Numbered from the stretch's first letter, positions 1,437 through 53,398 are shown. The stretch is DNA of 64,000 nucleotides from an uncultured Acetatifactor sp. (GCA_947586055.1 CANPXL010000012.1:774-64773); one strand, 5' to 3'. A program made the numbers and translations. Notes: generated by a model from the sequence alone, not told the origin.

Positions 1437-1507
1437 AGGGATACCTCCATCTTTGACAGCACCGCTGTCGCTTTCTATTATAGAATACCACATCCGCCGT
1501 TAAATTA

Positions 1508-3784: not shown

Positions 3785-3788
3785 GGGT

Positions 3789-4541
3789 TCAATTTACCTC
3801 TGACACGTCGCTGAAGTTCCAGGTTCTGATATTAAACTCTACAAGAGGGGAATCACAGTAAGGGCAGATCTTCGCCCCCAGCTCGGGAAGGGGCGCGCCG
3901 CAGTTGGGGCAGTTTGCGGCAAGTCCGGCGTCCGCCGTATTTTCCGCAATCTCTCTGTCCTGAATGTAGATCACCTCCACATCATACCGGGTCTGATGCA
4001 GCCCGGCGCCGGTTCTTTCCGGGGTCCGGCCGCCCTGCTCCCGCGGCCGTTCGTACTGGACGGCGGACTGGAAGACAATGCTGCAGCGTCCCTTTTCCCT
4101 TCGGTATGTCCTGATCTCCGTCCTGTGGATCCTGATATTGTCGAAATGTTCCTCTTCCCCGGCGTCGCGCAGCATTTCTATCCGCATCTTAAGCTTCGTT
4201 TTCAGCTCTTCGGTGCCTTCCGCAAGCAGCGCGGGATCCGCCCTGTCCACGCTGCGCAGGAAGGAAGTCAGCACATTTTCGGCCCGCCGCTTCATCTCGT
4301 CGTAATGAAAATCCGGAAAGTCCCGCATGATGCGGGGCAGGTAGATGCTGGTGGCTCCGGAGACGGATTTCGGCGTCGTCTCGCTCTCCAGCTCCGCGCT
4401 CCGCAGTCCCTGCATGATATCTTCCGTGCCAAACGCTATATGGGAAAACTCCCTGACCTTTTTTCTGACTCTTCGGTAGGCGTAATACCCCGTCCCCATA
4501 ACGGCCAGAAGCAGCGTCAGCGCAATAATAACACCCGTCAT
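3789..4541 (-). CDS. membrane-anchored protein with possible Tim44-like domain and C-terminal zinc ribbon
   Basis: N-terminal TM helix; CPNCG...CPYC; directly downstream of the SPFH gene. Confidence 0.7.
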   Translation of the reverse strand: MTGVIIALTLLLAVMGTGYYAYRRVRKKVREFSHIAFGTEDIMQGLRSAELESETTPKSVSGATSIYLPRIMRDFPDFHYDEMKRRAENVLTSFLRSVDRADPALLAEGTEELKTKLKMRIEMLRDAGEEEHFDNIRIHRTEIRTYRREKGRCSIVFQSAVQYERPREQGGRTPERTGAGLHQTRYDVEVIYIQDREIAENTADAGLAANCPNCGAPLPELGAKICPYCDSPLVEFNIRTWNFSDVSEVN

Positions 4542-4558
4542 CTTAATTTCGTCTCTCT

Positions 4559-5914: not shown

Positions 5915-5968
5915 TTTTCTTCCTCCGTTTTCGGTTACTGTCGTTTTCAGAGTCGTTACATTGTTTTT

Positions 5969-5997
5969 ATTGTACCAAATCCTGCGGATTTTCTCAA
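5969..5997 (-). promoter_or_regulatory. sigma-A promoter of the SPFH operon
   Basis: TTGAGA-17 bp-TACAAT with TG extension. Confidence 0.7.
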
Positions 5998-6042
5998 TAC
6001 TTTTATCCGGCCGATTCCGTCGCCGGCTGGACGGAGGCGCGC

Positions 6043-6083
6043 AAAAAACCGCCCGCGGGCTGCGTTCCCACAGCCGCGGACGG
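6043..6083 (-). terminator. intrinsic terminator after NMT1-like gene
   Basis: GC-rich imperfect stem 6049-6083 followed by a T6 tract on the minus strand. Confidence 0.55.
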
Positions 6084-6106
6084 CGCCGTACTCTCCCAGG
6101 TGATCC

Positions 6107-7120
6107 TTATTTTGCCGCTTTCCCGGCAAATTCCGTGTTCACAAGTTTTTCGTAGGGCACTTTTTTCTCCAGCACCCCGGCGTCCAGAAGAATATTCTGC
6201 AGAAGGTCAAACGAGCTCTCTTCAAAAATCAGGTCTTTCTTCCAGGTATCCTGCTCATAGTAGCGCGTCACAATGGCGCTCAGCGTTTCCAGATCCGTCT
6301 CTTCAAACTGCGGCGCGATCACCTTCGCGATCTCCTCCGGCGTGTGGGACTGCACATAGTCCATTCCCTTCTGAAGCGCGTTGGTAAAGGCCTGCACGGT
6401 TTCCGGATTGTCCTCCAGATAACTTTTTCTGGCGGAAAAAGCGGTGTATGGCACATAGCCGGAATCCTCGCCGAGGGATGCCACCACATAGCCTTTCCCC
6501 TGCTGTTCCAGGGATGTGGCGTGGGGCTCAAACTCCACCGTAAACTCCCCCTGACCGCCCGCAAAAGCGGCGGCGGTGGAGCCGAAATCAATGCTCTGGT
6601 CAATATTGACGTCGCCGGGGTCGATCCCGTTCATCTCCAGAATATATTCAAACACCATCTCGGGCATACCGCCCGCTCTGCCGCCCAGCACATCTCTGCC
6701 GACCAGCATTTTCCAGGAAAAGTTTTCCATGGGTTCTCTGGCTACAAGAAAGTTTCCGGCGCGCTGGGTCAGCTGCGCAAAGTTCACCACATAGTCCTCG
6801 GTTCCGCCCGCGTAAGTATAAACCGTGCTCTCGCTTCCCATGAAGCCGATATCCGCTTCTCCCGTGAGCACCGCGGTCATCGTCTTATCCGCGCCGAAGC
6901 CCGTCACAAGGCTGAGCTCGATTCCCTCATCCTCAAAGTACCCCTCTTCTATCGCTACATACATCGGCGCATAGAAAACGGAATGCGCCACCTCGTTCAA
7001 CACGACCTTTTTATTGCCCGACTGCGTCTTTCCTTTCCCGCCGCAGCCCGTCGCCGCGCCAAGCAGCAGAAGTGCCCCAAGGCAGAACGCTCCGGCTTTC
7101 TTCAGATTCCGTCTTTTCAT
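6107..7120 (-). CDS. ABC transporter substrate-binding lipoprotein, NMT1/THI5-like
   Basis: Lipobox-like LLGAATGC; AHSVFYAPMYVAIEEGYF; GGRAGGMP. Confidence 0.85.
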   Translation of the reverse strand: MKRRNLKKAGAFCLGALLLLGAATGCGGKGKTQSGNKKVVLNEVAHSVFYAPMYVAIEEGYFEDEGIELSLVTGFGADKTMTAVLTGEADIGFMGSESTVYTYAGGTEDYVVNFAQLTQRAGNFLVAREPMENFSWKMLVGRDVLGGRAGGMPEMVFEYILEMNGIDPGDVNIDQSIDFGSTAAAFAGGQGEFTVEFEPHATSLEQQGKGYVVASLGEDSGYVPYTAFSARKSYLEDNPETVQAFTNALQKGMDYVQSHTPEEIAKVIAPQFEETDLETLSAIVTRYYEQDTWKKDLIFEESSFDLLQNILLDAGVLEKKVPYEKLVNTEFAGKAAK

Positions 7121-7193
7121 ATAAGACCTCCCATATCCATGATGCTCTATTATATGAGGGTCCGTTCGGAAAAGTTCCGGAGCGCTTCCTGTT

Positions 7194-7841
7194 TTACGTT
7201 TCTTCCTGTTTTTCCTGTTTTTCCTGCTTCTTCTGCTTTTCCCCTTCGGAAGGCTCCTCCAGCTCGTCCACCATTTTCTCTATCAGCAGCTTTTTGACAT
7301 ATACGTCAAAGCTCAGGGTGCAGATAAAGGCAAATTTCCGCAGAAAATCCCTGCTCTCCCCGGGCGCATCCTCAAACGTCCCCGCTGCTGCGGCGAATTT
7401 CTGCGTGACGTCGGCCTTCAGCGCCTCGATCTGCGCCTTCTCCAGACTGAACGCTTCCCTGTATACGCTCTCCAGATTAAAATTTCCGTCGCTCTGGAAA
7501 AACCGCTCCGTGATCGGGCGCAGCAGCTTCTGGATATCCCCGATGGACAGAATGCCCTTGTAATAATAGATAAAGATCAGAAGCAGCACATGCTCCTTGG
7601 AATATTTCTTTTTCACCGGCGGCGGAAGCAGATCGTTCTTCGCATAATTGTTGATCATGGTCTTTGTCAGCACCTTGTCTTCCCCCGGGCGCCGGACGGA
7701 AGCGCGCAGCCCGTTGTCCATAAAGGTCGTCACCTGATCCATATAGAGATCGATCCCCGGGATATCCTCCGGCTTGATATGCTGAATCCTGTCCAGGCTG
7801 GCAAGAATACTGTTCAGAAGATCGTTGCTGTCAATCGTCAT
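7194..7841 (-). CDS. DUF1836 family protein (probable DNA-binding)
   Basis: IPGIDLYMDQVTTF...LTKTMINNYAKNDLLPPPVKKKYS signature. Confidence 0.85.
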   Translation of the reverse strand: MTIDSNDLLNSILASLDRIQHIKPEDIPGIDLYMDQVTTFMDNGLRASVRRPGEDKVLTKTMINNYAKNDLLPPPVKKKYSKEHVLLLIFIYYYKGILSIGDIQKLLRPITERFFQSDGNFNLESVYREAFSLEKAQIEALKADVTQKFAAAAGTFEDAPGESRDFLRKFAFICTLSFDVYVKKLLIEKMVDELEEPSEGEKQKKQEKQEKQEET

Positions 7842-7876
7842 ACGTTCATCCGCCTTTCGCGTGTCTTAACAAGTTC

Positions 7877-7905
7877 ATTATATAGTATTCAAAACTACAT
7901 GACAA
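7877..7905 (-). promoter_or_regulatory. sigma-A promoter of DUF1836 gene
   Basis: TTGTCA-17 bp-TATAAT. Confidence 0.7.
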
Positions 7906-7934
7906 CAAATATTTCAGATTTTCCGGTTTTTCGG

Positions 7935-7963
7935 TTTACTTTCAGATTTCAGTATGTTAAAAT
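7935..7963 (+). promoter_or_regulatory. sigma-A promoter of yerC-like gene (divergent)
   Basis: TTTACT-17 bp-TAAAAT with TG extension. Confidence 0.65.
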
Positions 7964-7976
7964 TCCTCTAGTAAAG

Positions 7977-7999
7977 CTGTAAAATTTTACAGTGTAAAA
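7977..7999. promoter_or_regulatory. candidate operator: overlapping palindromes
   Basis: Perfect 16-bp palindrome CTGTAAAATTTTACAG (7977-7992) overlapping TTTTAC-AGT-GTAAAA (7985-7999), just downstream of the -10. Confidence 0.5.
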
Positions 8000-8022
8000 G
8001 TGTTTGGGGAGGTATCTGCAAG

Positions 8023-8316
8023 ATGAACAGAAAAATCAAGACCGAGGCGGTAGACGCCCTTTTTGATGCCATTCTGTGTCTGAAATCAAGAGAAGAGTGC
8101 TATCGTTTTTTTGAAGATCTGTGTACCGTCAACGAACTGCTGTCTCTGTCCCAGCGCTTTGAAGTCGCGGCCATGCTGAAACAAAAGAAAACCTATCTGG
8201 AAATTGCCGAAAAGACCGGCGCCTCCACCGCTACCATCAGCCGCGTAAACCGCTCCCTCAACTACGGTAACGATGGATATGAAATGGTTCTCGAGCGCCT
8301 GTCCCGGCTTTCCTAA
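8023..8316 (+). CDS. YerC/YecD family TrpR-like transcriptional regulator
   Basis: FFEDLCTVNEL...QRFEVAAML...TYLEIAEKTGASTATISRVNRSLNYG; GGAGG RBS. Confidence 0.9.
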   Translation: MNRKIKTEAVDALFDAILCLKSREECYRFFEDLCTVNELLSLSQRFEVAAMLKQKKTYLEIAEKTGASTATISRVNRSLNYGNDGYEMVLERLSRLS

Positions 8317-8828
8317 TTCTGATCCGGCTCCTTGCTGTCCTCGGAGAGCTCATCGGCCCGGTTTGCGGCTTCCACTTCCTTCAGGGCTTCTTCGATCGCT
8401 TCCTTCGCCGATTTCTTTCCGGCCCTTATCGCCCTTGAGACGGGTCTGGACCGTTTCCCGGACACATCCTGGTTCATGTTGCAGTTCCCGTGAAAGACGG
8501 CGTTCTCGTCGATGACGATAACCGCGGTGGAAATGTTTCCGATCAGTCTGGCGGTAGCGGTCAGCTCCGTTTTCTCCGTCACGGTCACATCGCCCGTGAT
8601 CTCGCCCCCTATCACGACGGACTGCGCCTCCACGTTGCCCCGGACGGATCCGGCGGCGCCGACGATCAGGGTTCCCGTCACCCTTACGTCTCCGTTGACC
8701 TCCCCGTCGATCCTGACGGAGCCCTCCGCGCTGAAATCGCCCTCGCACACCGCGCCCCTGCCGATAATCGTCGTAATTACAATTTCGTTCTTCATACTTT
8801 TCCTCACCTTCCGCCGCCGAGCGGCCAA
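8313..8828 (-). CDS. bactofilin (polymer-forming cytoskeletal protein, CcmA-like)
   Basis: TTIIGRGAVCEGDF...VRIDGEVNGDV...VVIGGEITGDV...LIGNI...VIDENAVFHGNCNM beta-helix pattern; start is TTG 8828 or ATG 8795. Confidence 0.9.
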   Translation of the reverse strand: MAARRRKVRKSMKNEIVITTIIGRGAVCEGDFSAEGSVRIDGEVNGDVRVTGTLIVGAAGSVRGNVEAQSVVIGGEITGDVTVTEKTELTATARLIGNISTAVIVIDENAVFHGNCNMNQDVSGKRSRPVSRAIRAGKKSAKEAIEEALKEVEAANRADELSEDSKEPDQN

Positions 8829-8849
8829 ACATACACCTGAAATCCGCGG

Positions 8850-9569
8850 CTAACCGCTGATGGCCAGCATATCCATGGGATCGATATACACTCCGTCCTT
8901 CATCATCTGATAGCCGAGCCTGTTATTCTCATCGTCGATCAGAAAGAGGGTGCTGCCCTGTCTGACCGTTTCTCCCTGTTTTACCTTGACTTCCCCCTGA
9001 TTCCTGTATATGGTGACATAGCCGTTTCCGTGGTCCACCCAGACATTGTGTCCGTATTCGCTGTCGTCGTTGACCGCGGAGACCGTGCCGCTGGCCGTCG
9101 CCACTACCATGGCTCCGGACGTTGCCAGAAAGATGCACATGGGATCTCCTTCCGGCGCGTTCTCAAACGTGGCGGCTCCCGTCAGAGGAAATTCCGTTGG
9201 TATTGCCTGCTGCTCCAGCTGCTGCGCAAGACTGCTCTCGCTCTCCGTCTTCTGGGTCACCGTATCGCTCAGGATCTGAACCGTATTGTTCAGTTCATCC
9301 ACCTTCGCCTGCAGAGCCGCGTTTTCCTCTTCCAGCGCCTGGATCGTCTCCTGCTGCTGCGCGTTCCGGATCTCGGCCGTTCCGTCCGCCTGCGCGCCGC
9401 GCAGAAAGATGATATATCCCGCCGCCGCGCCCAGAACCACGCTCAGAAGAATCACAAACGCTTCCACCTTCCACGGTCTGATCCGGAACTGTCTTGTACC
9501 GGCATCCGCCGCATCGGACGTAACAATAACTACATGACTGTTTTTGCGCTTATGCTTTCGTCGTGCCAT
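8850..9569 (-). CDS. TM + coiled-coil + M23-fold protein, zinc ligands apparently lost
   Basis: M23-like scaffold (VVATASGTV, YGHNVWVDHGNGYVTIY, VKQGETVRQG, IDPMD) without HxxxD or HxH. Confidence 0.8.
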   Translation of the reverse strand: MARRKHKRKNSHVVIVTSDAADAGTRQFRIRPWKVEAFVILLSVVLGAAAGYIIFLRGAQADGTAEIRNAQQQETIQALEEENAALQAKVDELNNTVQILSDTVTQKTESESSLAQQLEQQAIPTEFPLTGAATFENAPEGDPMCIFLATSGAMVVATASGTVSAVNDDSEYGHNVWVDHGNGYVTIYRNQGEVKVKQGETVRQGSTLFLIDDENNRLGYQMMKDGVYIDPMDMLAISG

Positions 9570-9596
9570 AAAAAGTCACCTCCGGTAAACTTCATC

Positions 9597-9625
9597 ATTT
9601 TACCATAGGTGACTCCCGACAGCAA
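9597..9625 (-). promoter_or_regulatory. sigma-A promoter of M23-bactofilin operon
   Basis: TTGCTG-17 bp-TAAAAT with TG extension. Confidence 0.6.
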
Positions 9626-9717
9626 TGCAAATTTAATATTTTTGTAACATTTACCGAAGAAACTTCCTGCCGCATGTACAATATGTAAAAATATAACGCA
9701 TGTTATTTGTGCAAAAT

Positions 9718-10518
9718 CTACAATTCCAGGTCTGTGTTCTCCCCGGATCTGCAGACGGCGAGCACCTTCTCCCATTCCAGCGGGCCGCCAAACAGGTCCA
9801 GCGCGCTGCCCGCGGTGACGTTCAGCCGGCCGCCTCCGAGCTCCTTCAGAAGAAGCAGATCCTCATAGCTGTGGACGCCCCCCGCGTAAGTTACGGGCAG
9901 ACCGTCCCACTGGCCCAGCAGACGGGCCAGTTCCGTCTCGATGCCCCGGGATTGTCCCTCCACGTCCACCGCGTGTACCAGAAATTCGTCGCAGTACTGC
10001 GACAGTTGGTCCAGCAGCCCGGCCGTTACCTGTTCGCCGGTGATATGCTGCCACCGGTCCGTCACCACCATATAGCCTCGCTTTGTTTTTCTGCAGCTTA
10101 AATCAAGAACCAGCCGTTTTCTGCCGACCGCCCTGCTCATCCGTTCCAGCCGGTCGTACCGGATCTTTCCCTCCCGGAACACATAAGAGGTGACGATCAC
10201 ATGGCTCGCGCCCGACTCCAGAAACAGCGACGCGTTTTCCGGCGTGATTCCGCCTCCGATCTGAAGGCCCCCGGGGTATTCTCCAAGCGCTCCCAGCGCC
10301 TGCTCCCTGGAAGCTTCGTAAAATTCGCTTCCGGGGGGATTGAGCAGAATAACATGCCCTCCCTTCAGGCCCTCTCTGCGGTACAGCGCCGCAAAAAAAG
10401 CGGCGTCCTGACCGGAGACAAAATTTTCTCTGGCCGCGTTTCCCCCATCCCGCAGACTGCCGCCCACGATCTGTTTTACTTTTCCGTTGTGTATATCGAT
10501 GCAGGGTCTGAACTCCAT
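9718..10518 (-). CDS. hisA: ProFAR isomerase, eukaryote-type (HIS6-like) HisA
   Basis: FRPCIDIHNGKVKQIVGGSL, LQIGGGI, SHVIVTSYVF, EFLVHAVDVEG, VTYAGGV, GSALDLFGG. Confidence 0.88.
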   Translation of the reverse strand: MEFRPCIDIHNGKVKQIVGGSLRDGGNAARENFVSGQDAAFFAALYRREGLKGGHVILLNPPGSEFYEASREQALGALGEYPGGLQIGGGITPENASLFLESGASHVIVTSYVFREGKIRYDRLERMSRAVGRKRLVLDLSCRKTKRGYMVVTDRWQHITGEQVTAGLLDQLSQYCDEFLVHAVDVEGQSRGIETELARLLGQWDGLPVTYAGGVHSYEDLLLLKELGGGRLNVTAGSALDLFGGPLEWEKVLAVCRSGENTDLEL

Positions 10519-10563
10519 ACCTTCCCCTTTTCCTTTCGGCAGACCGCGCTTCCGGCTCCCGCC

Positions 10564-11142
10564 CTACACGCGCGGGCCTTCGTCCGGTCCGTCCGGCGTC
10601 TTTTCATCCGCGGGACGCGCCTTGCCGCGCCTGCCGAAAAACAGCCAAAAGAGCAGAAAACCCACGACGGTGCCCAGAAGATTCGTCAGGATATCGTCTA
10701 TCTGGAAATACCCTCTTCCCGTTATCTTCTGCAGCCACTCCACCGCGACGCTGGTCGCCGCCCCGAACAGGGCGCACCCAAAGAATCCGCCGGCCCAGGG
10801 AAGCGCCCACGCGCTCAGAAAGCCGTACGGTATGAATAACAGCACATTTTCCACCACAAACGCATTATTTCTGTCGTTGATCCCCCAGGTGGAAAACAGT
10901 TCCAGATCCGCCGCGCCCACTCTGCTCCCGCTCTCTCTCGAAAAAAAGGTGATTACAAGCAGTATGGCAAGATACAGCGTATAAAGCGCCGCCGGTATGC
11001 CGGACGCCGGTCCTTTTTTCTTTCCCGGGCCGCCTCTGCCGAGGATCCATAGGAGCAGCAGAGCGGCAGGCACTCCCAGGGCAAGGCTGTAGGGAAGGTA
11101 CTCCATCGTGGAGACCATGTCCCTGTATAGATATTTCACCAT
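10564..11142 (-). CDS. VanZ family membrane protein
   Basis: VENVLLFIPYG...VEWLQ...GYFQIDDILTNLLG; start moved to ATG 11142. Confidence 0.85.
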   Translation of the reverse strand: MVKYLYRDMVSTMEYLPYSLALGVPAALLLLWILGRGGPGKKKGPASGIPAALYTLYLAILLVITFFSRESGSRVGAADLELFSTWGINDRNNAFVVENVLLFIPYGFLSAWALPWAGGFFGCALFGAATSVAVEWLQKITGRGYFQIDDILTNLLGTVVGFLLFWLFFGRRGKARPADEKTPDGPDEGPRV

Positions 11143-11191
11143 ATTCCATCTCTCCGGTAACAATCCGTTCCGGACAGGCAAAAGAAAACGT

Positions 11192-11494
11192 TTACCGGTA
11201 ACTGTCCCAGCGGCTTCCGGCTTTCTCCCATCTGTCCTTCTCTTCAAACAATCTGTCGTTCATCCACGCGACGGCATCCGCCACGCCGTCCTCGTCAAAG
11301 GAAAATTCCGCGTGCTCCTTCTCTTCGGGGGGCGTGGTGACAAAGTTGAACGGCTCCGGCCATACCGTAACCCTGAGTTTTTTCCCCTCGTCTGCGGGAA
11401 CGCCCTCAAGACGGTATCTCATCCCCTGATGGCTGCCGGTAAACTCCGTCTTTTTCAGATATTCCATGGATAGGATGTCTTGTCGCTGAATCAT
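11192..11494 (-). CDS. conserved hypothetical protein
   Basis: Typical composition (FTGSHQGMRYRL, VWPEPFNF); in line with neighbouring minus-strand genes. Confidence 0.7.
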   Translation of the reverse strand: MIQRQDILSMEYLKKTEFTGSHQGMRYRLEGVPADEGKKLRVTVWPEPFNFVTTPPEEKEHAEFSFDEDGVADAVAWMNDRLFEEKDRWEKAGSRWDSYR

Positions 11495-11611
11495 TTATGT
11501 ATACTCCGCAATACTGTCGTTCGTTTTTCATCCAGAGCCGCTTTGTCCGCGCCGCTGCCCGCATGGTTCTGAGGCGCTCCCGCCGCAAGCCGCACGCGTC
11601 GCTCATACAGA

Positions 11612-11641
11612 CACAGGGCGTTTGTCGAGAAACGCCCTGTG
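11612..11641. terminator. hairpin downstream of sigE
   Basis: 12-bp perfect stem CACAGGGCGTTT / AAACGCCCTGTG with 6-nt loop; weak U tract. Confidence 0.5.
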
Positions 11642-11676
11642 ATAAGTATACCTCATATCTGCCCTCTTTGCCAAGC

Positions 11677-12414
11677 CTAAATATAGCTGCTCATCTCTTT
11701 TTTCAGCTGACGCATGATCTTTTTCTCCAGTCTGGATATGTAAGATTGGGAAATCCCCATCAGGGACGCCACTTCCTTCTGGGTCATCTCCTGTCCGTCC
11801 GGCGTGCCCAGCCCGAATCTCAGCCTGATGATCGTCTTTTCCCTGTCGGACAGCTTGCTTATCGCCCTCATCAGAAGTTTTCTTTCCGCTTCGTTTTCAA
11901 TATTTCTGTAGATCACATCCTCGTCCGTCCCCAGAATGTCCGACAGAAGCAGTTCGTTTCCGTCCCAGTCCACATTCAGCGGCTCGTCGATGGAAACCTC
12001 CAGCCTCGTCTTATTGTTCCGCCGAAGATACATCAGGATCTCGTTTTCTATGCACCGGGACGCGTACGTGGCAAGCTTGATGTTTTTTTCCGGATTAAAC
12101 GTGTTGATCGATTTGATCAGCCCGATCGTCCCGATGGAGATCAGATCCTCCACGCCCACGCCGGTATTGTCAAACTTCTTTGCGATATAGACCACAAGTC
12201 TCAGATTATGCTCGATGAGAATCGCTTTTGCCTCCGCGTCGATCTCCGTCCCGAGATCGCTTATGACCTGACTCTCCTTTTCAACCTCCAAAGGCGGCGG
12301 GAGCACCTCCGCCCCTCCTATGTAATGAATCTCTCCCCTTTTATGCAGCAGAAGGTTTTCCCTGCGTATCATCTTAAACTGCATTCTTCCCGGTAGTGCC
12401 ACTTTCAGTATCAT
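11677..12414 (-). CDS. sigE: sporulation sigma factor pro-sigma-E
   Basis: [65 protein letters not shown]; start at ATG 12414. Confidence 0.96.
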
Positions 12415-13264
12415 AGGTCCTCTCATTCTGCCGTTTATCCGGCCTTTCCTTTTTCCGCTCTTCAAAGAGCGCAGGATTGATTATCATTTTTACGGATTCC
12501 GCCTCCGCGTCTTCAGATTCGCTGATTCCCTGGGGGCTGGCCGCGATCCAGACCCGGGAAAAGCTTCTGACAATGCCGTCTGTCTCCACAAGGAGTTCGG
12601 GAAGCAGATAGCCTTCCAGAATCCCCCGGCTCTTTCCGATGCTGTGATAGGGAACGATCCGGCAGCCTTCCGGAAGCTTTCCCTTCAGACTGTCCAGCAC
12701 GCTCTCCGACACAATACAGACCGGCCGGCCGCTGACAGGTTCCGTCAGCGTATTTCCGGAATCGATCAGTCCCGTCACCTCGAGACGCATTTCCCGGCAC
12801 AACAGCACCGCTCTGCACAGACTCTCCTTCTGGATGTTCCCCGAGCCGCGCCTTCGCAGAAAGAGAAAACAGATCCCGCCCACGCCCAGGATTCCGAATA
12901 CGCCCGTCAGGGCTCTTCTCAGTCCCGGCACGGCGCGGATCAGGAAAAGCAGCGCTCCGCCCATACAGAAAGAATAAAGGATAAGTTTTTCTAACAGCTT
13001 CCAAAACATTCTGAAGCTCTTCACGGGAAACGCCGTCAGAAGCATTCCAACGGTTCCCACCGCGATCCCCGCTCCCATTTTCAGGAAAACGGCCCCCGGC
13101 AGCAGATACGGCAGCAGCCCGCCAATTCCCCCAAGCGCGGCTCCCAGAAGCAGCCTTCCCGGCGTGGCAGTGCGGAAAGAGCTGCGGTTTACCAACAGCA
13201 AAAGGTAAAGGTCCATCACAAAATTGACCAGAAACAGACTGTCTGCATAAAGTTCATACTGCAT
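12374..13264 (-). CDS. spoIIGA: sigma-E processing peptidase SpoIIGA
   Basis: [14 protein letters not shown]-terminus, multiple TMs, aspartyl motif [14 protein letters not shown]; immediately upstream of sigE. Confidence 0.92.
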
Positions 13265-13286
13265 CGGCATCATCCTTTTCACAATC

Positions 13287-13352
13287 ATTATAAAGTTCTT
13301 CAGGGATAAAATTTGTCAAAGATGCGGGGAGAATCCGGCGATTTTTTCGACA
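13287..13352 (-). promoter_or_regulatory. Spo0A-dependent spoIIG-type promoter
   Basis: TTGACA (13319-13314)-21 bp-TATAAT (13292-13287); perfect 0A box TGTCGAA at 13346-13352; 6/7 0A box overlapping the -35. Confidence 0.7.
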
Positions 13353-13492
13353 TTTGCTTATGGTTTCCGGCTCTGTCTGCAGACGCCTTCCCAATCCGCC
13401 CATGCCCCTTTGGAACAAGGTCACGCGCGTCACAGAAGGGCGCGCTTTTCGATCCGGAATACCGGTCTGCCAACCGCCGCCACATAGAGAAA

Positions 13493-13515
13493 GCCGGGCG
13501 CTTTCCGCGCCCGGC
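13493..13515 (-). terminator. terminator after ftsZ
   Basis: GCCGGGCG / CGCCCGGC 8-bp stem followed by TTTCTC on the minus strand. Confidence 0.55.
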
Positions 13516-13546
13516 CACAGCTTTTTCTTCTTTATCCTATTTTCTT

Positions 13547-14722
13547 TTATTTTCTCTGCAGGAAATCCGGAATCTTAAGAGATTTCTCTTCCACGGAACT
13601 TCTGATATCCACAGGCTTCTGGATGCCCGGGACCGGTCTCGGCGCCGCAGATCCGCCGCCCTGCTGCCCTGTCTGGGGCTGTATGCCGAGATTCTTGAGA
13701 GAATTCGGCGTAAGATGAGGCGAAGACGGCCGGTAAGAAGAGCCGGTTCCGATTCTGGACGTCGCGGCGGGCGCCTCTTCAAGTCCGGTAGCGATCACCG
13801 TGATGGAGCAGGTGTCGGATTTGGAAGCGTCGTACATTGCGCCGAAAATAATGTTCACATCCTCGCCCGCAAGATTCTGTACATAACTTACGGCGTCGTT
13901 CGCATCCGCCAGCGTAATGTCGCCGGACACATTTATGATCACATGGCTCGCGCCCGTGATGGTCGTCTCCAGCAGCGGGCTCTCCACAGCCATCTTTACG
14001 GCGTCCATGGCCTTCTCGTCGCCCTTGCCTTCGCCGATGCCGATATGCGCAATGCCCTTCTCCGTCATCACGGTCTGTACGTCCGCAAAGTCCAGATTGA
14101 TGATGGCGGGCACATTGATCAGGTCGGTAATGCCCTGAACCGCCTGCTGAAGCACTTCATCCGCTTTCTTAAGCGCTTCCGGCATGGTGGTGCGCCTGTC
14201 CACAATCTCGAGAAGCTTGTCGTTGGGAATCACGATCAGGGTATCCACATGCTGCTTAATGCGCTCGATGCCGTTGAGCGCGTTTGTCATACGGGTTTTG
14301 GCTTCAAACCGGAAAGGCTTTGTCACAACGCCCACCGTGAGGATCCCCATCTCTTTTGCAAGTCTTGCCACAACGGGAGCCGCTCCCGTTCCGGTTCCGC
14401 CGCCCATGCCGCAGGTGACGAACACCATATCCGCTCCCTTGAGAGCCGCCGCGATCTCTTCCGCGCTTTCCTCCGCCGCCTTCTCTCCCACGTCGGGCTT
14501 TGCGCCGGCCCCAAGTCCCTTGGTCAGCTTCTCTCCGATCTGCAGCAGCCTGGGAGCCTTGCACAGCTGCAGGGCCTGCTTGTCCGTGTTTACCCCGATA
14601 AAATCCACTCCGTCGATCTGTTCATCTATCATTCTATTGACAGCATTGTTACCTGCACCGCCTACGCCGACCACGATGATCCTGGCTGCAGATTCAGCGT
14701 CATTCGTCTTAATCTCAAGCAA
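13547..14722 (-). CDS. ftsZ: cell division protein FtsZ
   Basis: [10 protein letters not shown], tubulin signature [18 protein letters not shown]-terminal peptide KIPDFL. Confidence 0.98.
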
Positions 14723-14830
14723 GAGTCCGTCCTCCTTTTAAAAGCAAAGCTTACAAAACTTCATATAGACTATCATACAATTTTTTCACAAATTAATCAA
14801 CATGTTTTTGTTTTTATTTTCTGTTCCACA

Positions 14831-15073
14831 TCAGTTCAGCCGGCAGTCGTATTCATCGAAAAATCATGCTTGCATGAATTTTTCGATGAATACGACTGCC
14901 GAGGGAGCGCCATTCCATGAGCAAAGGCAGGCGCGAAGCGCCGAATAGCGCGCCAGCGCGGCTTTGCGAATGGCGCGAGCTGAACTGATCCGTCCCATGG
15001 CAAAGGAAGGCGCGTAGCGCCGAATCGCGCGCCAGCGCGGCTTTGCGAATGGCGCGTGCTGAACTGGTCCGTT
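14831..15073. repeat. composite palindromic intergenic element (REP/BIME-like)
   Basis: 23-bp perfect inverted repeat 14841-14863/14879-14901; two tandem ~80-bp units (14915-14994, 14995-15073; 6 substitutions + 1 indel); TCAGTTCAGC (14831-14840) is inverted at 14979-14988. Confidence 0.85.
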
Positions 15074-15085
15074 CGATATAACGAT

Positions 15086-15814
15086 TTAATCCGGCTGAAA
15101 GGTATATCGTCCGCCGCTCTCCTCATAAGTTTCCATCTGAAGCGTTCCGCTCATCCCCTCCAGATTCGGCAGAAGTTCGGGGAGAAGCATAAGCTTGTCC
15201 TCCAGCGTCCCGCTGTCGTTTCCCAGCGCGACCTTCACGTTCTCGAAAAACAGCGTGACATTTCCGGAAGGCTGAAAATGAATTTTATCCACGTTCAGTT
15301 CATACTTCCTGAGAAGCTTTGTGAGATTCAGAATGCTGGAAAACACCTTCGGATCTTTCACGGGAAGGGCTTCTCCCACCGCCATGTGGTCGAAGGAGAG
15401 CCCCGTGATCTCCGGGACGCCGGCGGTTCTTACGCTGGAGCTCTCCACCACATAGCCGTCCTTGTCAAAATACAGATAGGTGCCCAGATACTTCACATAT
15501 CCCGTCAGCGCCTTCTCGTACACCGTGATCCTCACCGTGTCGGGCGCGAGAATGGTGACGTCCATCACATCCACGAACGGCACGCCCTCTATGCCCCTGT
15601 TTCGGTACTTGGCGGAGAGATAAAGCGAATTGTTTCCGAGGGGGCCGTCCATGACGATGGCTTTGATCTCATCCTCCGTATAATGTACATTCCCCTCCAC
15701 ATATACTGTATTGACGGTATATCTGGAGATTACATAGCCCCCCGCTCCCAGCGCCGCTGCCAGGATCAGACAGACAACAAGTATGATAATTTTTATCCTG
15801 CTTCCCTTACGCAC
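15086..15814 (-). CDS. cell division protein DivIB/FtsQ-like
   Basis: N-terminal TM, POTRA-like VYVEGNVHYT, position between murA and ftsZ. Confidence 0.8.
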   Translation of the reverse strand: MRKGSRIKIIILVVCLILAAALGAGGYVISRYTVNTVYVEGNVHYTEDEIKAIVMDGPLGNNSLYLSAKYRNRGIEGVPFVDVMDVTILAPDTVRITVYEKALTGYVKYLGTYLYFDKDGYVVESSSVRTAGVPEITGLSFDHMAVGEALPVKDPKVFSSILNLTKLLRKYELNVDKIHFQPSGNVTLFFENVKVALGNDSGTLEDKLMLLPELLPNLEGMSGTLQMETYEESGGRYTFQPD

Positions 15815-17060
15815 CCGTTATCCGCGCTCCTAACTCTCTGAAATCCCGGCAGATATTTTCGTATCCGCGGTAGATATACCTGCACCCGGTCACAGTGGTC
15901 TCGCCCCGGGCCATAAGACCCGCCACCACCAGCGCCGCGCCGCCGCGCAGTTCCCTTGCTTCCACGGGAACGCCCCGGATGGAATCCACGCCGTGTATCA
16001 GGACCGTATCCGGCTCCCGGACCTCTATCCGGGCCCCCATCCTGCGCAGCTCTTCCACCACCCGGAAGCGGTTTTCAAAAATCGTTTCCCGGATCATGAC
16101 GTCTCCGTCCGCCCGAACGGCGGCCGCCAGCGCCACCGACTGCAGATCCGTGGGAAAACCGGGGTAGGTCTCCGTCCGGATGCATTCCACGGCCCGGGGC
16201 CTGTCGGGAGCCTGTACATAAACGCCCTCCCGGGAGATACAGATCTTTCCTCCCATATGCTCCGCCAGCTCCAGCGCCGACTTCATCTCTTCCCACGGGG
16301 CGTCCTCCAGAAGCACGCTGCCCCCCGTGCCGATGCAGCCGAACAGATACGTCCCCGCCACAATTCTGTCCGCCGGAACCGTAAATTCCGCGCCGGAAAG
16401 CTCTCTGCCGCCCCGGATCAGAAGCCTGCCGGTTCCGATCCCCTCGATCCCGGCGCCGCAGCCTTTCAGGTATCTGCACAGCGCGGCGATCTCCGGCTCC
16501 AGCGCCGCGCCCTCCAGAACCGTGTCGCCCCGGGCCAGAACCGCGGCGAGGATCACGTTCTCCGTGGCTCCCACGCTGGGAAACGGCAGACGGATCTCTG
16601 CGCCGTTTAGTCTGTCCGCGGACGCCAGAAGCCTGCCCTCTTCCTCCCGGAATTCCACCCCCATCTGCCGCAGCGCTCCCAAATGCAGATCAATGGGCCT
16701 TTTCCCGATCACGCAGCCGCCGGGATGCTCCATGACAGCGCTGCCGCATCTGCCCACAAGAGCTCCCAGCAGACAAAGGGACGAGCGCATGCCCGTTGCC
16801 GCCTCCGTTCCGATCTCTCTGCAGTCCACACGGGAAGCGTCCACATACAGCCCTTCCCCCTGCCAGCTCACCCTGCAGCCGATGTTCTTCAGCAGACTGA
16901 TCATCGCAAACACGTCCGTAATTCTGGGACAGTTTCTGATAAAGGAACTGCCTCCGGCCAAAAGCGTTGCCGCCAGAACCGGCAGCGCGGCGTTTTTTGA
17001 GCCCTGTATCCGGACTTTCCCCTGTAACGGCACTCCGCCCTGAATCTGAATAGAATCCAT
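15807..17060 (-). CDS. murA: UDP-N-acetylglucosamine 1-carboxyvinyltransferase
   Basis: GSKNAALP, catalytic-Cys loop PGGCVIGKRPIDLH, SVGATEN, YPGFPTDLQ, YRGYE. Confidence 0.93.
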   Translation of the reverse strand: MDSIQIQGGVPLQGKVRIQGSKNAALPVLAATLLAGGSSFIRNCPRITDVFAMISLLKNIGCRVSWQGEGLYVDASRVDCREIGTEAATGMRSSLCLLGALVGRCGSAVMEHPGGCVIGKRPIDLHLGALRQMGVEFREEEGRLLASADRLNGAEIRLPFPSVGATENVILAAVLARGDTVLEGAALEPEIAALCRYLKGCGAGIEGIGTGRLLIRGGRELSGAEFTVPADRIVAGTYLFGCIGTGGSVLLEDAPWEEMKSALELAEHMGGKICISREGVYVQAPDRPRAVECIRTETYPGFPTDLQSVALAAAVRADGDVMIRETIFENRFRVVEELRRMGARIEVREPDTVLIHGVDSIRGVPVEARELRGGAALVVAGLMARGETTVTGCRYIYRGYENICRDFRELGARITGA

Positions 17061-17123
17061 ACGTCTCCAACACCATCCGGTATCAAACTGATAGACCTAT
17101 TCTATCCTATGCGGAAGGCACGC

Positions 17124-18287
17124 TTACAGTTCCTTGAGCTGAATCCGCTTCGCCACGCTTAAGACAAGCCCGATCTCCGCCAGCAGAAACATGACGGAGG
17201 AACCCCCGTAGCTGATAAAGGGAAGGGAAATCCCCGTGTTGGGAATGGAGTTCGTCACAACGGCAATGTTCAGGATGGCCTGGATGGCGATATGGCCCAT
17301 GACGCCCACGACCAGCATTGCGCCGAACAGATCCGGCGCGTTGTTTGCGATCACCATCATGCGCCACAGCAGCATAATGAACATCAGGATGATGGCAATG
17401 GCGCCGAACAGGCCCAGTTCCTCACAGATAATGGAAAAGATCATGTCGTTCTGCGCCTCGGGAAGGAAACTCAGCTTCTGCATGCTCTGTCCAAGTCCCT
17501 TGCCCCAGATGCCGCCGCTTCCGATGGCGTACAGCGCCTGCATGGTCTGGAAGCCGACGCCAAGCAGATCGCTCTCCGGATCCAGCCACGCCTGAATGCG
17601 TCCGCCGCGGAACTTCAGAAAATCGCTGCCCGACACCACCAGAAACACCGCCAGCGCGGCCAGTGCCACCACGGCGCCCCCCATGATCAGGAATTTCTTA
17701 TAGTCGGGGCTTGCCACAAACACCATGAGAACCGATATACCGAGGACAATGATGGCGGAGCTTAAGTTATCCGTGATCAGATAAATTTCCAGCGCGATGG
17801 GCAGCGGGAACGCCACCATAAGGAGAAATCCCTTCATGGTCCGCACGTTCTTTCCCATCTTGCAGACCATGGTGGCAAGAAACAGGATCATCCCCAGTTT
17901 CGCCACCTCCGCGGGCTGCAGGTTCAGACCGATGACCGGGACCTCGATCCAGCGCCTTGCCCCGTGGGATTTCACGCCCAGCGGCGTCAGCACCAGGGGG
18001 ATGATGGCCATGGAGACAAGATACCCGGCAAGGTAAAACCGCTCCCAGAAGTGATACGGAATATTCGCCACCGCGATCATGGCCACAAGCCCCAGAATCA
18101 CGGCGACCAGCTGCTTTTTCAGGTAATATGCCTGATCCTGATAGCTCTGGTACGCCTCGTAGGAACTGGCGGAATAGATCATCACCAGCCCGAAGCCCAA
18201 AAGAAACAGCACGATAAACAGCAGGCTGTAGTCAAAAAAATATTCGGATTGTTCTTTTTTTCTTCTCGCTGCGCTCCGCGATGCCAT
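17124..18287 (-). CDS. SEDS peptidoglycan polymerase FtsW/SpoVE
   Basis: GARRWI, QPAEVAK, GSGGIWGKGLGQS, LPEAQNDMIF, LPFISYGGSS. Confidence 0.92.
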   Translation of the reverse strand: MASRSAARRKKEQSEYFFDYSLLFIVLFLLGFGLVMIYSASSYEAYQSYQDQAYYLKKQLVAVILGLVAMIAVANIPYHFWERFYLAGYLVSMAIIPLVLTPLGVKSHGARRWIEVPVIGLNLQPAEVAKLGMILFLATMVCKMGKNVRTMKGFLLMVAFPLPIALEIYLITDNLSSAIIVLGISVLMVFVASPDYKKFLIMGGAVVALAALAVFLVVSGSDFLKFRGGRIQAWLDPESDLLGVGFQTMQALYAIGSGGIWGKGLGQSMQKLSFLPEAQNDMIFSIICEELGLFGAIAIILMFIMLLWRMMVIANNAPDLFGAMLVVGVMGHIAIQAILNIAVVTNSIPNTGISLPFISYGGSSVMFLLAEIGLVLSVAKRIQLKEL

Positions 18288-22487: not shown

Positions 22488-24662
22488 TTACTGAATGTCG
22501 GGATTTATGGGGACATCGGTATCCACCGTATCGGATCCGTCATCGGCCCCGCCGTCTCCTTCTCCCTCCGGAGCCTGACCGTTCCCTTCTCCCCCGGGGG
22601 TCTGGCCGCTGCCCTCTCCCTCCGGGGCCTGACTGTCCCCTTCTCCCCCGGGAGTCTGGCCGTCCCCTTCCGGCGTCGTTTCGTAATAGGTGTTCTCCAG
22701 ATTCAGCTGATCCAGCTCCGCCTGTTCCTCTGCGGTGACGTCCACGGTCATGAAAATATTCAGATAGGGAAGCGCTTCCGTAAGGATGCTTCTCACAATG
22801 GCGGTGGCGTACTTTGCGTCTCCCTGATGGGATTCGTTGGGCCTGTCCACCACAACGTAGATCGCGATCTGGGGGTCCTCCGCCGGCGCGTAGCCGATAA
22901 AGGATACCACATGATCCGTCTCCGAACGCTTGTGGGTCACGGGATCGATCGTCTCCGCCGTTCCCGTCTTCCCGCCGATCTTATATCCCGCGGGCCGTGC
23001 CGTCCCGCCGGTTCCGTACTCCACCACGGCGTTGCAGTACTGCCGGATCAATGCGGACGTGGATTCGGACACGGTCTGCTTCAGCACCCGGGGCTCGATG
23101 TTTTTCACGGTGGCGCCGCTGGAGTTTGTGATGCGGTCCACCATATGGGGCTCATAATAACTCCCGCCGTTGATCAGGGAGCAGAAACCGGTGATCATCT
23201 CGATCATGGTCACGTTGAAATTCTGTCCAAAGCTGTTGGTGGCAAGGTCCGTGGGGCCCATTTTGTCCGCGGTGTAGACCAGGCTCGCCGTCCGCGCCTC
23301 TCCCGCCAGGTCAATGTTGGTGCGGAGTCCGAAGTTAAAGATCCGCTGGTACTCCACAAAATTCTCCGCCCCGATTGTCTGCGCGATCTTCATCATGCTC
23401 ACGTTGCAGGATTTTGCAACGGCCCTCTCAAGGGTCATCAGGCCGTCGTTTTTGTTGTGGCAGTGGATGGTATATCCTCCCACCTCCAAAGCGCCGTTGC
23501 ACTCGAAGGTGGAGTCCGGCGTGATCGTCCCCAGCTCCAGAGCCGCGGCAACCGTAAACGGCTTCGCCGTGGACCCCGGCTCGTAGGTGCCGGTAATGCA
23601 GTAGTTTTTCCAGAGGTTGTTCAGATTCAGATACACTTCGTCCTCGCTCATGGCGTCCAGCGTCTCCTGAGTGATGATGGTGCCGGTGTTTCTGATCTCA
23701 AAATAACCGGCGGCGTTCGTGATCTGTTCCACCTTTTTGGAGCCCAGAAGGCTCTGGGTATTGCGCACATCGTTCAGATCGTATCCGGGCGCGCTCGCCA
23801 TGGCGAGGATCCTTCCCGTGTTGACCTCCATGATAATACAGCCCACGTTGTCCGCGCCGTTTCCCGGCGTATTTTTGTCCTGGTGTTCCTCCATGAACTT
23901 CCGGAGATATTTTTCCACGATCATCTGCAGGTTCACGTCAAGCGTGGTATGGATGGTATTGCCGTCCACGGCCGCCTTTACCGTCCGCTCCAGCGCGAGG
24001 TCCTCGTTCATGTAGCCGTATTCTCTGCCGTTGATCCCGTTCAGGACGTCATTATAATATTCCTCCAGCCCGTAGCTTCCCTGATTGTCCGTGCTGGTAA
24101 AGCCGATTGCGTCCGCCGCCAGGGAGCCGTACGGGTACTGTCTCTGATACTCTTCCTCGAACCAGACGCCCCGGATGTTCGTATTTTTCTCCTGCGCTTC
24201 CAGAAAGCCGCTGATCTGGTCATATTCAAGCCGTTTTAAGGGCACATACCAGGACGAAGCGGGATGGGTCGTCACATACTCTCTGATCTGGCCCATATCC
24301 AGTTCAAAATTCTGGCCCAGCGCCTGCAGGGTGGGCTCCAGGTACTCTTCCTTCCCCAGCATTACCTTTGCGTCGATCACAAGGTTGTACACCTTCTGGC
24401 TGGTGGCAAGCCTCGTCCCGTGGCTGTCAACGATATCGCCCCGCCTGTAGGGAATGACAACGGAATCATACCGCTGCTGCGCCAGGACCTGTTTCTGGTA
24501 CTGGGTGCCGTTTTCCCGCACCAGATAAAAAAGTCTCGCGCTTAACCCGGCAAAAGCCAGCAGTACCAACAGAAACAGTACCACCAGCTTCTTCTGCATC
24601 TTTGCCGAAAATATTTTTTTCTTTTTCCCCCGTCTGCCCGCTTCCTGGCTGCCGTTTCTCAC
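22488..24662 (-). CDS. class B penicillin-binding protein, FtsI/Pbp2B-like
   Basis: RRGDIVD, EPGSTAK, SCN, KTG; acidic Gly/Pro repeat tail. Confidence 0.9.
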   Translation of the reverse strand: MRNGSQEAGRRGKKKKIFSAKMQKKLVVLFLLVLLAFAGLSARLFYLVRENGTQYQKQVLAQQRYDSVVIPYRRGDIVDSHGTRLATSQKVYNLVIDAKVMLGKEEYLEPTLQALGQNFELDMGQIREYVTTHPASSWYVPLKRLEYDQISGFLEAQEKNTNIRGVWFEEEYQRQYPYGSLAADAIGFTSTDNQGSYGLEEYYNDVLNGINGREYGYMNEDLALERTVKAAVDGNTIHTTLDVNLQMIVEKYLRKFMEEHQDKNTPGNGADNVGCIIMEVNTGRILAMASAPGYDLNDVRNTQSLLGSKKVEQITNAAGYFEIRNTGTIITQETLDAMSEDEVYLNLNNLWKNYCITGTYEPGSTAKPFTVAAALELGTITPDSTFECNGALEVGGYTIHCHNKNDGLMTLERAVAKSCNVSMMKIAQTIGAENFVEYQRIFNFGLRTNIDLAGEARTASLVYTADKMGPTDLATNSFGQNFNVTMIEMITGFCSLINGGSYYEPHMVDRITNSSGATVKNIEPRVLKQTVSESTSALIRQYCNAVVEYGTGGTARPAGYKIGGKTGTAETIDPVTHKRSETDHVVSFIGYAPAEDPQIAIYVVVDRPNESHQGDAKYATAIVRSILTEALPYLNIFMTVDVTAEEQAELDQLNLENTYYETTPEGDGQTPGGEGDSQAPEGEGSGQTPGGEGNGQAPEGEGDGGADDGSDTVDTDVPINPDIQ
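22548..22670 (-). repeat. 27-bp coding tandem repeat in PBP C-terminus
   Basis: EGDGQTPGG-EGDSQAPEG-EGSGQTPGG-EGNGQAPEG-EGDGG; alternating units give a 54-bp higher-order period. Confidence 0.85.
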
Positions 24663-36210: not shown

Positions 36211-36240
36211 ATCCCGTAGCCTCCTTTTCTTCTATATCAT

Positions 36241-36405
36241 CTGATCTGTTCCGATCTGTCCTGATTTGTTCTGTTCTAATCTGATCTGTCCTGACCTGTT
36301 CTGTCCTGACCTGTTCTGTCCTGACCTGTTCTGTCCTGACCTGTTCTGTCCTGACCTGTTCTGACCTGATCTGTTCCAGTCTGACCTGTTCTGTCCTGTT
36401 CTATC
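36241..36405. repeat. pentamer microsatellite (CTGWY) with 15-bp higher-order unit
   Basis: 33 consecutive pentamers; five perfect copies of CTGTCCTGACCTGTT at 36286-36360. Confidence 0.95.
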
Positions 36406-36425
36406 CCTGCGCCGGTTTTCATTCC

Positions 36426-41725: not shown

Positions 41726-41759
41726 AACAGTTCAGCCGGCGGCCGCCGGCTGAACTGTT
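41726..41759. repeat. perfect 34-bp loopless palindrome, member of the CAGTTCAGC family
   Basis: AACAGTTCAGCCGGCGG|CCGCCGGCTGAACTGTT; shares CAGTTCAGCCGGC with 14832-14844. Confidence 0.9.
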
Positions 41760-53395: not shown

Positions 53396-53398
53396 TTC

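Follow-up and report, generated by a model that had tools for sequence, protein, structure and literature searches.

The Block between ftsQ and ftsZ

We consider here a block of repeated, self-complementary sequence at positions 14828-15077 of a 64,000-nucleotide stretch of DNA from an uncultured Acetatifactor sp. (GCA_947586055.1, CANPXL010000012.1:774-64773; hereafter, the window), and the dispersed family to which it belongs, very probably one of MITEs (miniature inverted-repeat transposable elements). The block fills much of the spacer that runs, on the minus strand, from the stop codon of an FtsQ/DivIB-type gene (15086-15814, with a POTRA_1 domain) to the start of ftsZ (13547-14722, whose product has Tubulin and FtsZ_C domains). 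The neighbor on the ftsQ side is an FtsQ-type POTRA protein. Within 13547-15814, ftsZ comes directly after the FtsQ/DivIB-type gene with no ftsA in between, and a MurA-type gene of the EPSP_synthase family (15807-17060) lies immediately upstream of the latter.

The block is made up of one full element of ~163 nt and an additional tandem copy of the element's 3′ half. The full-length element occupies 14828-14990 on the plus strand (nhmmer 14829-14990, E = 7e-41, model positions 3-164 of 166); it was aligned with 41 other copies (alignment A1), and its plus strand, which is the strand modeled by Rfam and the better-folding one, is antisense to ftsQ and ftsZ. At its left is the core of a terminal inverted repeat (TIR), ATCAGTTCAGC, at 14830-14840 (+), found both as inverted repeat I2 and in the family alignment, which pairs with the right core, GCTGAACTGAT, at 14979-14989 (+). 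The 11-nt core is kept in this copy and the outer GTAA is not: the left end has ACAT in its place, the canonical family end being GTAACAGTTCAGCC. Next to the left core is a long variable hairpin at 14841-14901 (+; inverted repeat I1) with the conserved apex TCATGCTTGCATGA, whose arms, 14841-14864 and 14878-14901, form a perfect inverted repeat of 24 nt. A conserved branched module follows at 14907-14977 (+); it holds the invariant GCGGCTTTGCGAATGGCGCG, and its stems GCGCC/GGCGC and GCAAAG/CTTTGC surround two small covarying hairpins.

The rest of the block, 14990-15077 (+; direct repeat D1), comprises a linker, CCGTCCCATG, the extra 3′-half copy (nhmmer 14997-15069, E = 8e-16) with a second right end, GCTGAACTG, at 15058-15066, and a linker-like tail, GTCCGTTCGAT. 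Viewed as a tandem repeat, the right part of the block consists of two 79-nt units, 14921-14998 and 15000-15077, with 91% identity (Tandem Repeats Finder period 79, score 274). An earlier prediction, made from the sequence of the window and here called the original prediction, had described this composite of inverted repeat, tandem units and ends at the same coordinates, with an inverted repeat of 23 rather than 24 nt. It had also taken ATCAGTTCAGC and GCTGAACTGAT as the bounds of the block; the pair is present, but it encloses the hairpin and the first tandem unit only. What flanks the whole block is an imperfect 12-nt direct repeat, TCTGTTCCACAT at 14820-14831 (+) and TCCGTTCGATAT at 15068-15079 (+), which agree at 9 of 12 positions.

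The layout of the block recurs at unrelated loci in other Acetatifactor metagenome-assembled genomes (MAGs; loci L056, L062, L053, L019, and L091), with 89% identity to the window block over 254 nt in L056. These long forms carry one to three extra right-end units; they lack GTAA termini, and no duplication is definable for them. Since the layout is found at unrelated loci, it is a sub-family form and not a local accident. The ftsQ–ftsZ copy itself is probably no longer mobile, judging from its ends, because the outer GTAA has been lost and there is no clean 8-bp duplication.

The block has a strong potential to fold, both as RNA (−136.1 kcal/mol, z = −9.0 against shuffled sequence) and as DNA (−90.8 kcal/mol, z = −10.0). 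Downstream of the insertion and outside the element is a promoter-like site for ftsZ (14772-14800, minus strand: TTGATT, 17 nt, TATGAT), and it may be because of this putative promoter that an insertion of 248 bp between ftsQ and ftsZ is tolerated.

Terminal Repeats, Target Duplications, and a Contig without the Block

Canonical copies of the family are bounded by 14-bp TIRs, 5′-GTAACAGTTCAGCC...GGCTGAACTGTTAC-3′, whose core, CAGTTCAG, is invariant in all 42 aligned copies. Directly outside GTAA...TTAC, an 8-mer is repeated with at most one mismatch in 17 of 57 non-redundant full copies, while re-pairing of the flanks at random (1000 permutations) gave a mean of 0.5 and a maximum of 3. Twelve of the 17 duplications are exact 8-mers and only two are longer, at 9 nt; their sequence differs from copy to copy, and the duplicated targets are 76% A+T. 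Examples are ATATAATA, ACAAAATC, AAAAGTTT, TGAAATAC, GCTGTAAT, and CGGATCAG.

A comparison of empty and filled sites, which the original prediction had proposed, yielded one informative contig. In RNA run X26, a contig with ~90% identity to the window passes directly from 14819 to 15068, so that the 248-nt stretch 14820-15067 is skipped; the left direct repeat TCTGTTCCACAT marks the edge of the missing stretch. We take this contig as supporting evidence for insertion, not as proof. Low-depth contigs from runs X2, X15, and X25 join 14723 to 15215, inside ftsQ, and skip 491 nt. This second join is probably a spurious or very distant alignment, since one side matches over only 21–22 nt and the matching parts are divergent.

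Comparison with ISBst12-Group Elements

The terminal repeats of the IS66 family of insertion sequences (ISs) start with GTAAGCG and are accompanied by 8-bp duplications, and the combination of an 8-bp duplication with ends starting GTAA is a signature of that family (PMC11946415). ISDge4, which belongs to the ISBst12 group with its single open reading frame (ORF), has the ends GTAACTGCTCAGCA and GTGACTACTCAGCA and an 8-bp duplication (PMC12898284). We read further ISBst12-group ends directly, from an element on the Geobacillus plasmid pHTA426 (ends GTAACTATTCAGCCC and GTATCTATTCAGCCC, duplication GACGAGTT), ISGst1 on pGS18, a B. thuringiensis element, and about ten elements from metagenomes and IMG/VR (L248-L260). 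All of these elements, more than 10 in number, have GTAAC-T-R-Y-TCAG(C) ends with exact 8-bp duplications, and they encode proteins with DUF6444, zf-IS66, and DDE_Tnp_IS66 domains. The ends of our family equal theirs at 12–13 of 14 positions, the closest left end being that of L253, GTAACTGTTCAGCC, with 13 of 14. The closest right end, and the only one with A at position 6, is that of L248, an IS that belongs to Acidobacteria. Because both the motif and the 8-bp duplications match, we conclude that the family carries ISBst12-group ends.

The likeness to these elements thus extends to the motif GTAAC-N-R-Y-TCAGC(C), to the exact 8-bp duplication, and to the variety of insertion sites. The differences are in what lies between the ends. 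The ISs are ~1.6 kb long and carry a transposase, whereas the element of the window is ~165 bp long and has no ORF; beyond the first ~14 nt, the interior of the MITE shares nothing with the subterminal regions of the sampled ISs.

A Dispersed Family in Lachnospiraceae

The original prediction had proposed a dispersed, modular, intergenic family reliant on an enzyme acting in trans, with further copies to be expected in the genome and in relatives, and this description is borne out by the number of loci, by the TIRs, and by the many internally deleted or truncated derivatives. More than 116 stretches, from about 45 genomes of a species-representative collection, contain the invariant 20-mer CGCGCCATTCGCAAAGCCGC, and this is a lower bound. 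The hosts include Acetatifactor, Eisenbergiella, Mediterraneibacter, Roseburia, Lachnoclostridium, Catenibacillus scindens, and Ruminococcus turbiniformis; among the matches listed, about five in Proteobacteria are due to chance, and all others are in Lachnospiraceae and relatives. Among the same matches, at least 13 loci belong to MAG S27M_St_57 and at least 10 to Lapin-002 bin88. The fetched DNA, 0.94 Mb in all, holds 157 copies or fragments according to an nhmmer profile of the family, the four of the window included. From the aligned copies, the canonical element is ~165 nt long, with a range of 155–190 nt.

The DNA of the window derives from an organism of the rabbit gut. In rabbit-gut metagenomes, contig depth on the element is 30–320 times that of the flanks (~1,500–17,800 against ~10–55), and in every run examined Lachnospiraceae contigs end at the element. 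The original prediction had placed all copies near gene 3′ ends; this is true of the window but not of the family, in which 23 copies lie each way relative to co-directional neighbor genes, without bias. No reading frame is kept consistently in the element: conserved blocks are spaced 31 to 34 nt apart, and this spacing varies in all three frames. A coding role, for which a Shine–Dalgarno-like GAGGGAG followed by ATGAGCAAAGG had been considered, was rejected in view of this 31–34 nt spacing to the conserved block and of stops in the hairpin loops.

Tandem copies 5–25 nt apart are frequent (L006, L020, L023, L041, L046, and L105). The short spacer resembles the sequence 3′ of the second copy, which suggests that such tandems may arise by repeated insertion into, or beside, the duplicated target of an earlier copy. 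An Eisenbergiella sub-family (L021:2312-2499, L063:6111-6298, and L072:4259-4445) has an extra hairpin of ~21 nt, such as GAGAAATCGCAGTTAGCGATCTC, in the branched module; the predicted fold tolerates an added stem at this point.

Fold, Covariation, and Strand Preference

On the strand modeled by Rfam, which is the plus strand of the window, the element reads GTAACAGTTCAGCC, long hairpin, GAGGGAGCGCC, branched module, GGCTGAACTGTTAC. The long hairpin has a stem that varies in sequence by sub-family and a conserved apex, TGCTTGCA or TGCTCGCA. Two small hairpins are enclosed, in the branched module, by the pairing of the invariant GCGCC...ATGAGCAAAG with CTTTGCGAATGGCGC. Over the 42 copies, standard pairs fill 95.8% of pair cells as against 86.9% in shuffles, and both sides have changed in 17 of 43 pairs; for covariation the score is 0.254, compared with 0.087 for shuffles and 0.03–0.08 when the partners are slid. 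Covariation is located in the hairpins, with compensatory changes in 11 of the 13 consensus pairs of the long-hairpin helix, while the outer helix and the stems of the module hardly vary.

The two strands are not equivalent. Over 25 sequence clusters, the mismatches of the long hairpin amount to 34 A·C against 11 G·T, or 12 clusters against 1, although the copies are related and the events accordingly not independent. The excess of A·C on one strand corresponds to G·U or G·T wobbles on the Rfam-sense strand, and that strand is the more stable in 35 of 41 cluster representatives, by a mean of 6.4 kcal/mol (p = 1.4e-6). An earlier count from the whole-element MAFFT alignment, 26 G·U against 23 A·C, had indicated no asymmetry; it did not hold because the alignment misplaced the outer part of the long hairpin, and it is superseded by the per-copy analysis. 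Transcription-coupled mutation bias cannot explain the asymmetry, since the orientation of copies relative to genes is random. It is tempting to propose, as the pattern of mismatches suggests, that folding is required of one strand in particular, be it in the form of RNA or of single-stranded DNA. A search of RNA runs with the element alone as the query found no run, and the RNA-run contigs that we used are unstranded.

Relationship to the Clostridiales-1 Motif

The original prediction did not recognize the family. With permissive filters, however, a scan against Rfam matched 14831-14988 (+) to RF01699, Clostridiales-1, with 48.6 bits against a gathering score of 48 (E = 7e-10); a default-filter scan of the whole window missed this match. 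Clostridiales-1 is a candidate small RNA (sRNA) of unknown function, common in the human gut, and it figures neither as a repeat nor as a mobile element in its published account (Weinberg et al. 2010, PMC2864571).

The likeness is extensive. Both families measure ~165 nt, have an outer closing helix followed by a long hairpin with a GCUUGC apex, possess a branched domain with AUGAGCA...UGCGAAUG, and occur in the same host clade. Among the loci fetched are two genuine RF01699 copies, at L043:4106-4273 (−), with 125 bits, and at L054:216-386 (+), with 74 bits, whereas canonical copies of the window family reach only 34.9–39.1 bits, below the cut-off. The outer helix covaries freely in the genuine members and in the seed rows (PMC2864571); in the window family, it is a fixed, IS-type repeat. 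The genuine members have a conserved GGUCAAAAGG and no GTAAC ends, unlike the window family, and a fourth stem of ~34 nt is absent from the latter, a 34-nt insert of the model being matched by 2 nt. As the other copies score 35–39 bits, and the apex and the AUGAGCA...UGCGAAUG core are common to both, the window family is, on the alignments, a sister of RF01699 with IS-type ends rather than a clean member.

Each genuine copy has a copy of the MITE family in its vicinity, 1.6 kb away in L043 and about 80 nt away in L054. In both genuine copies, GGTCAAAAG is present twice, inside the 5′ end and immediately beyond the 3′ end, and L054 and a published seed row have a further downstream stretch, TTGACCCCAACATCA, in common. 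Because GGTCAAAAG recurs and TTGACCCCAACATCA is shared, the real Clostridiales-1 repeat unit seems to be longer than the Rfam model, and the motif seems to be multi-copy per genome.

Other Sites in the Window

The nhmmer search of the window with the family profile returned four copies: 14829-14990 and 14997-15069, already described, together with 53363-53406 and 62636-62681. The last two, along with a palindrome at 41726-41759, are deletion remnants of the element, 62636 being only a weak candidate.

The site at 41726-41759, flanked by genes for a PfkB-family kinase and a Mur ligase, is a perfect palindrome of 34 nt, AACAGTTCAGCCGGCGGCCGCCGGCTGAACTGTT, just as the original prediction had reported. 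It has the form of an ends-only derivative, with two terminal repeats (AACAGTTCAGCCGGC) head to head, and comparable internal-deletion forms are present in L012, L093, L111, L035, and L089. A separate terminator-like hairpin, 41773-41797, adjoins it. At 53363-53406 (−; E = 3e-8, model positions 2-46) is a truncated end fragment, consisting of the terminal repeat and the conserved 20-mer, that abuts the secDF stop codon (53399-53401). The inverted 29-nt piece noticed there previously was also found again: CAGTTCAGC-CGCGCCATTCGCAAAGCCGC lies at 53367-53395 in the orientation opposite to that of the ftsQ–ftsZ block. Similar mini-derivatives of ~41 nt overlap gene ends in L039 and L081. Just 3′ of an ABC ATPase gene, 62636-62681 (+; E = 3e-4, model positions 35-80; repeat family D6) is a possible decayed internal fragment beginning ATGAGCAAAGG, and a weak one.

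The 13-mer has 11 matches in the window with at most two mismatches, against 2.06 expected, and none of 100 shuffles reached 11; the 20-mer CGCGCCATTCGCAAAGCCGC has three exact matches, against 0.02 expected. Metagenome relatives carry the 41726 and 53363 copies, and no presence/absence polymorphism was seen in them at either site.

Repeats of other kinds are also present. A tandem array at 46316-46621, with a period of 18 nt, ~12.6 copies, higher-order periods of 36, 54, and 108, and the consensus CGGCCTTTGCAGGCTCCA, probably encodes a six-residue protein repeat on the minus strand. Another, at 36225-36414 (15-nt period, ~9.6 copies, 86% matches), has the unit TCTGTCCTGACCTGT and probably corresponds to a repeat of five residues in coding sequence. 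Short-period repeats that are C/T-rich on the plus strand occur at 22551-22685 (27 nt, 4.4 copies) and 31087-31160 (15 nt, 4.9 copies). Upstream of the gene for a class I aminoacyl-tRNA synthetase of the Trp/Tyr family (60926-62152) is a T-box leader, at 62178-62463 (−; 100.9 bits).

What the Element Is

Taken together, these observations make us confident that the block is a copy of a MITE with ISBst12-group (IS66) ends, mobile by means of a transposase supplied in trans, and that the ftsQ–ftsZ copy is a long-form variant. A transposase produced elsewhere would move a piece of gene-less DNA of ~165 bp, either by cut-and-paste or by copying. The putative mobilizer would be a single DDE transposase of the ISBst12 group, of about 450–530 amino acids, that would bind the two ends and cut the target with an 8-bp stagger; insertion would take place in either orientation and mostly between genes. 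Because the autonomous partner was not found, the assignment of the enzyme that moves the element is one that we infer. We likewise infer any effect on the expression of ftsQ or ftsZ and any consequence for the host: a transcript of the division genes that reads through the block would acquire, upstream of the ftsZ promoter, an RNA structure of great stability.

The search for such a partner was broad. Clustering of ORFs across 116 genome loci revealed no recurrent transposase or other protein gene adjoining the copies, no IS-sized pairs of ends were present, and tblastn with an ISBst12 transposase found nothing in the 116 loci or in the window. The element had no blastn match in PLSDB and only three weak, partial ones in phages, and the 14-mer end matched 118 loci of viral contigs, all of them chance single matches without copies of the element. 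Metagenome contigs that encode the homologues P0067, P0117, and P0112 have ISBst12-type ends, not those of the MITE.

Several observations weigh against this interpretation. Neither the 116 genome loci nor the 139 viral loci, the PLSDB plasmids, or the sampled metagenome contigs yielded an autonomous IS with exactly the ends of the MITE, and at position 6 of the end the MITE has A where every sampled ISBst12-group left end has T. A recognizable duplication is retained in only 30% of full copies, and the window's own copy has neither GTAA termini nor a canonical 8-bp duplication, only the imperfect 12-nt repeat. The contig without the block is a single one, of low depth, from an RNA library, with no counterpart in eight DNA runs, and it could have arisen by deletion between the flanking 12-nt repeats. 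Finally, compensatory pairing in all of the variable helices, together with a better-folding strand, is not explained by plain selfish DNA.

This last point leads to the strongest alternative, that the block is a structured non-coding RNA (ncRNA) gene related to Clostridiales-1, whose outer helix is an RNA stem and whose copies are useful in themselves or ride in a transposon. We regard it as unlikely, and the version in which the RNA gene sits inside a transposon is compatible with the MITE interpretation. The RF01699 match, the pairing and covariation statistics, and the asymmetry of mismatches and of strand stability all speak for it, as does the fact that AUGAGCA...UGCGAAUG and the GCUUGC apex are common to the L043 and L054 copies, whose ends differ, and to the seed rows (PMC2864571). 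However, the outer helix, which varies freely in genuine Clostridiales-1, is near-invariant here and matches IS ends; the 8-bp duplications, deletion derivatives, and tandem partial units are properties of DNA transposition; and the scores of the other members fall under the Rfam cut-off. The element has no promoter or terminator of its own, so that a transcript containing both ends must start outside, and its orientation relative to neighbor genes is random. Moreover, the copies that show the strand asymmetry are related to one another, and part of it may go back to founder sequences; coverage of the element in RNA-run contigs is not above that predicted from DNA copy number.

Somewhat less probable still is the idea that the element is a transposon-borne structured nucleic acid, whose three-domain fold, also seen in Clostridiales-1, would work with or regulate an IS66-family transposase, or else a small RNA useful to the host and spread by transposition; the functional form could be RNA or single-stranded DNA. 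Bridge RNAs of IS110 and omega RNAs of IS200/IS605 are encoded at the ends of their elements, and our suggestion is made by analogy with them. If it were true, a related function in mobile elements would be probable for the Clostridiales-1 repeats of the gut, which are much more abundant.

A third view, that these sites are local regulatory hairpins (a terminator or attenuator in the ftsQ–ftsZ spacer, and terminators that follow pfkB and secDF) and are similar only incidentally, is improbable. All four window sites are just downstream of minus-strand genes, and a T-rich stretch follows the 41726 palindrome on the minus strand. Nevertheless, more than 100 unrelated loci, spread over many genera, carry the same ~165-nt sequence, in one orientation or the other, and a relative's contig lacks the ftsQ–ftsZ block. 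The terminator scan of the block returned one weak site, no more than is expected from shuffles, and after pfkB the canonical terminator-like hairpin at 41773-41797 is already in place. As an origin of the sequences, local hairpins are therefore already contradicted.

The original prediction had left the choice between MITEs and repetitive extragenic palindromes (REPs) or their bacterial interspersed mosaic elements (BIMEs), which would be mobilized or maintained by a REP-associated tyrosine transposase (RAYT, of the HUH/Y1 type) acting on single-stranded hairpins. The sequences are indeed palindromic, intergenic, modular, and multi-copy, and a strand-specific fold would suit a single-strand mechanism. 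REPs, though, are 20–40 nt long, without target duplications or IS-type inverted ends, and RAYT genes are typically flanked by their own REPs; the unit here is ~165 nt, and no RAYT gene flanked by the repeats, nor any other recurrent protein gene, lies beside the copies in the 116 loci (annotation of the window itself was not exhaustive). Given the exact 8-bp target duplications and the 14-bp, DDE-IS-type inverted ends of the ISBst12 group, as well as the copy number, we favor the MITE and consider a REP/BIME origin most improbable. Reasoning from the sequences, we also rejected an integron attC site (cassette arrays are absent, and the ends are unlike the attC core motifs), an IS200/IS605-type element or omega RNA (such elements have neither target duplication nor inverted ends), and an array of clustered regularly interspaced short palindromic repeats (spacing and unit size do not fit). 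The original prediction had itself named a match to an IS end or to an Rfam family as counting against it; both kinds of match were found, and its mobile-repeat reading has been refined by them, not overturned.

Significance and Comparison with Known Repeats

In practical terms, the repeat should be masked or labeled as a MITE in annotation, and not as an sRNA gene or a regulatory hairpin. It also lowers the contiguity of MAGs of the Lachnospiraceae, a major gut family, because contigs break at the element. For the host, an insertion of 248 bp with a potential structure of −136 kcal/mol in the division gene cluster appears to be tolerated.

The family is a new MITE family of a known kind. In the literature, we found no description of a MITE derived from IS66/ISBst12 or of a mobile Clostridiales-1, although our coverage is incomplete. 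It would be a high-copy MITE that can be assigned to the little-studied, single-ORF ISBst12 branch of IS66. The answer that the block is a mobile repeat is, in this sense, an ordinary one; the unexplained part is the strand-biased, conserved fold that it has in common with an orphan RNA motif of the gut. A fold close to an orphan Rfam motif of 2010, situated between transposon ends, provides a testable lead on Clostridiales-1-type repeats.

Among known systems, REP/BIME sequences resemble the family in being dispersed intergenic palindromes that are able to form composite arrays. The Correia elements of Neisseria and the RUP and BOX elements of the pneumococcus are, like the family described here, short, non-coding, high-copy, and intergenic, with a strong fold if transcribed. 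Correia and RUP have terminal inverted repeats with target duplications, and BOX has variable tandem sub-units that recall our long form. Unlike our family, these elements have other parent IS families and other duplication lengths, Correia and RUP duplicating TA, and we know of none among the three that has been described with a multi-domain, strand-preferring fold kept by compensatory changes.

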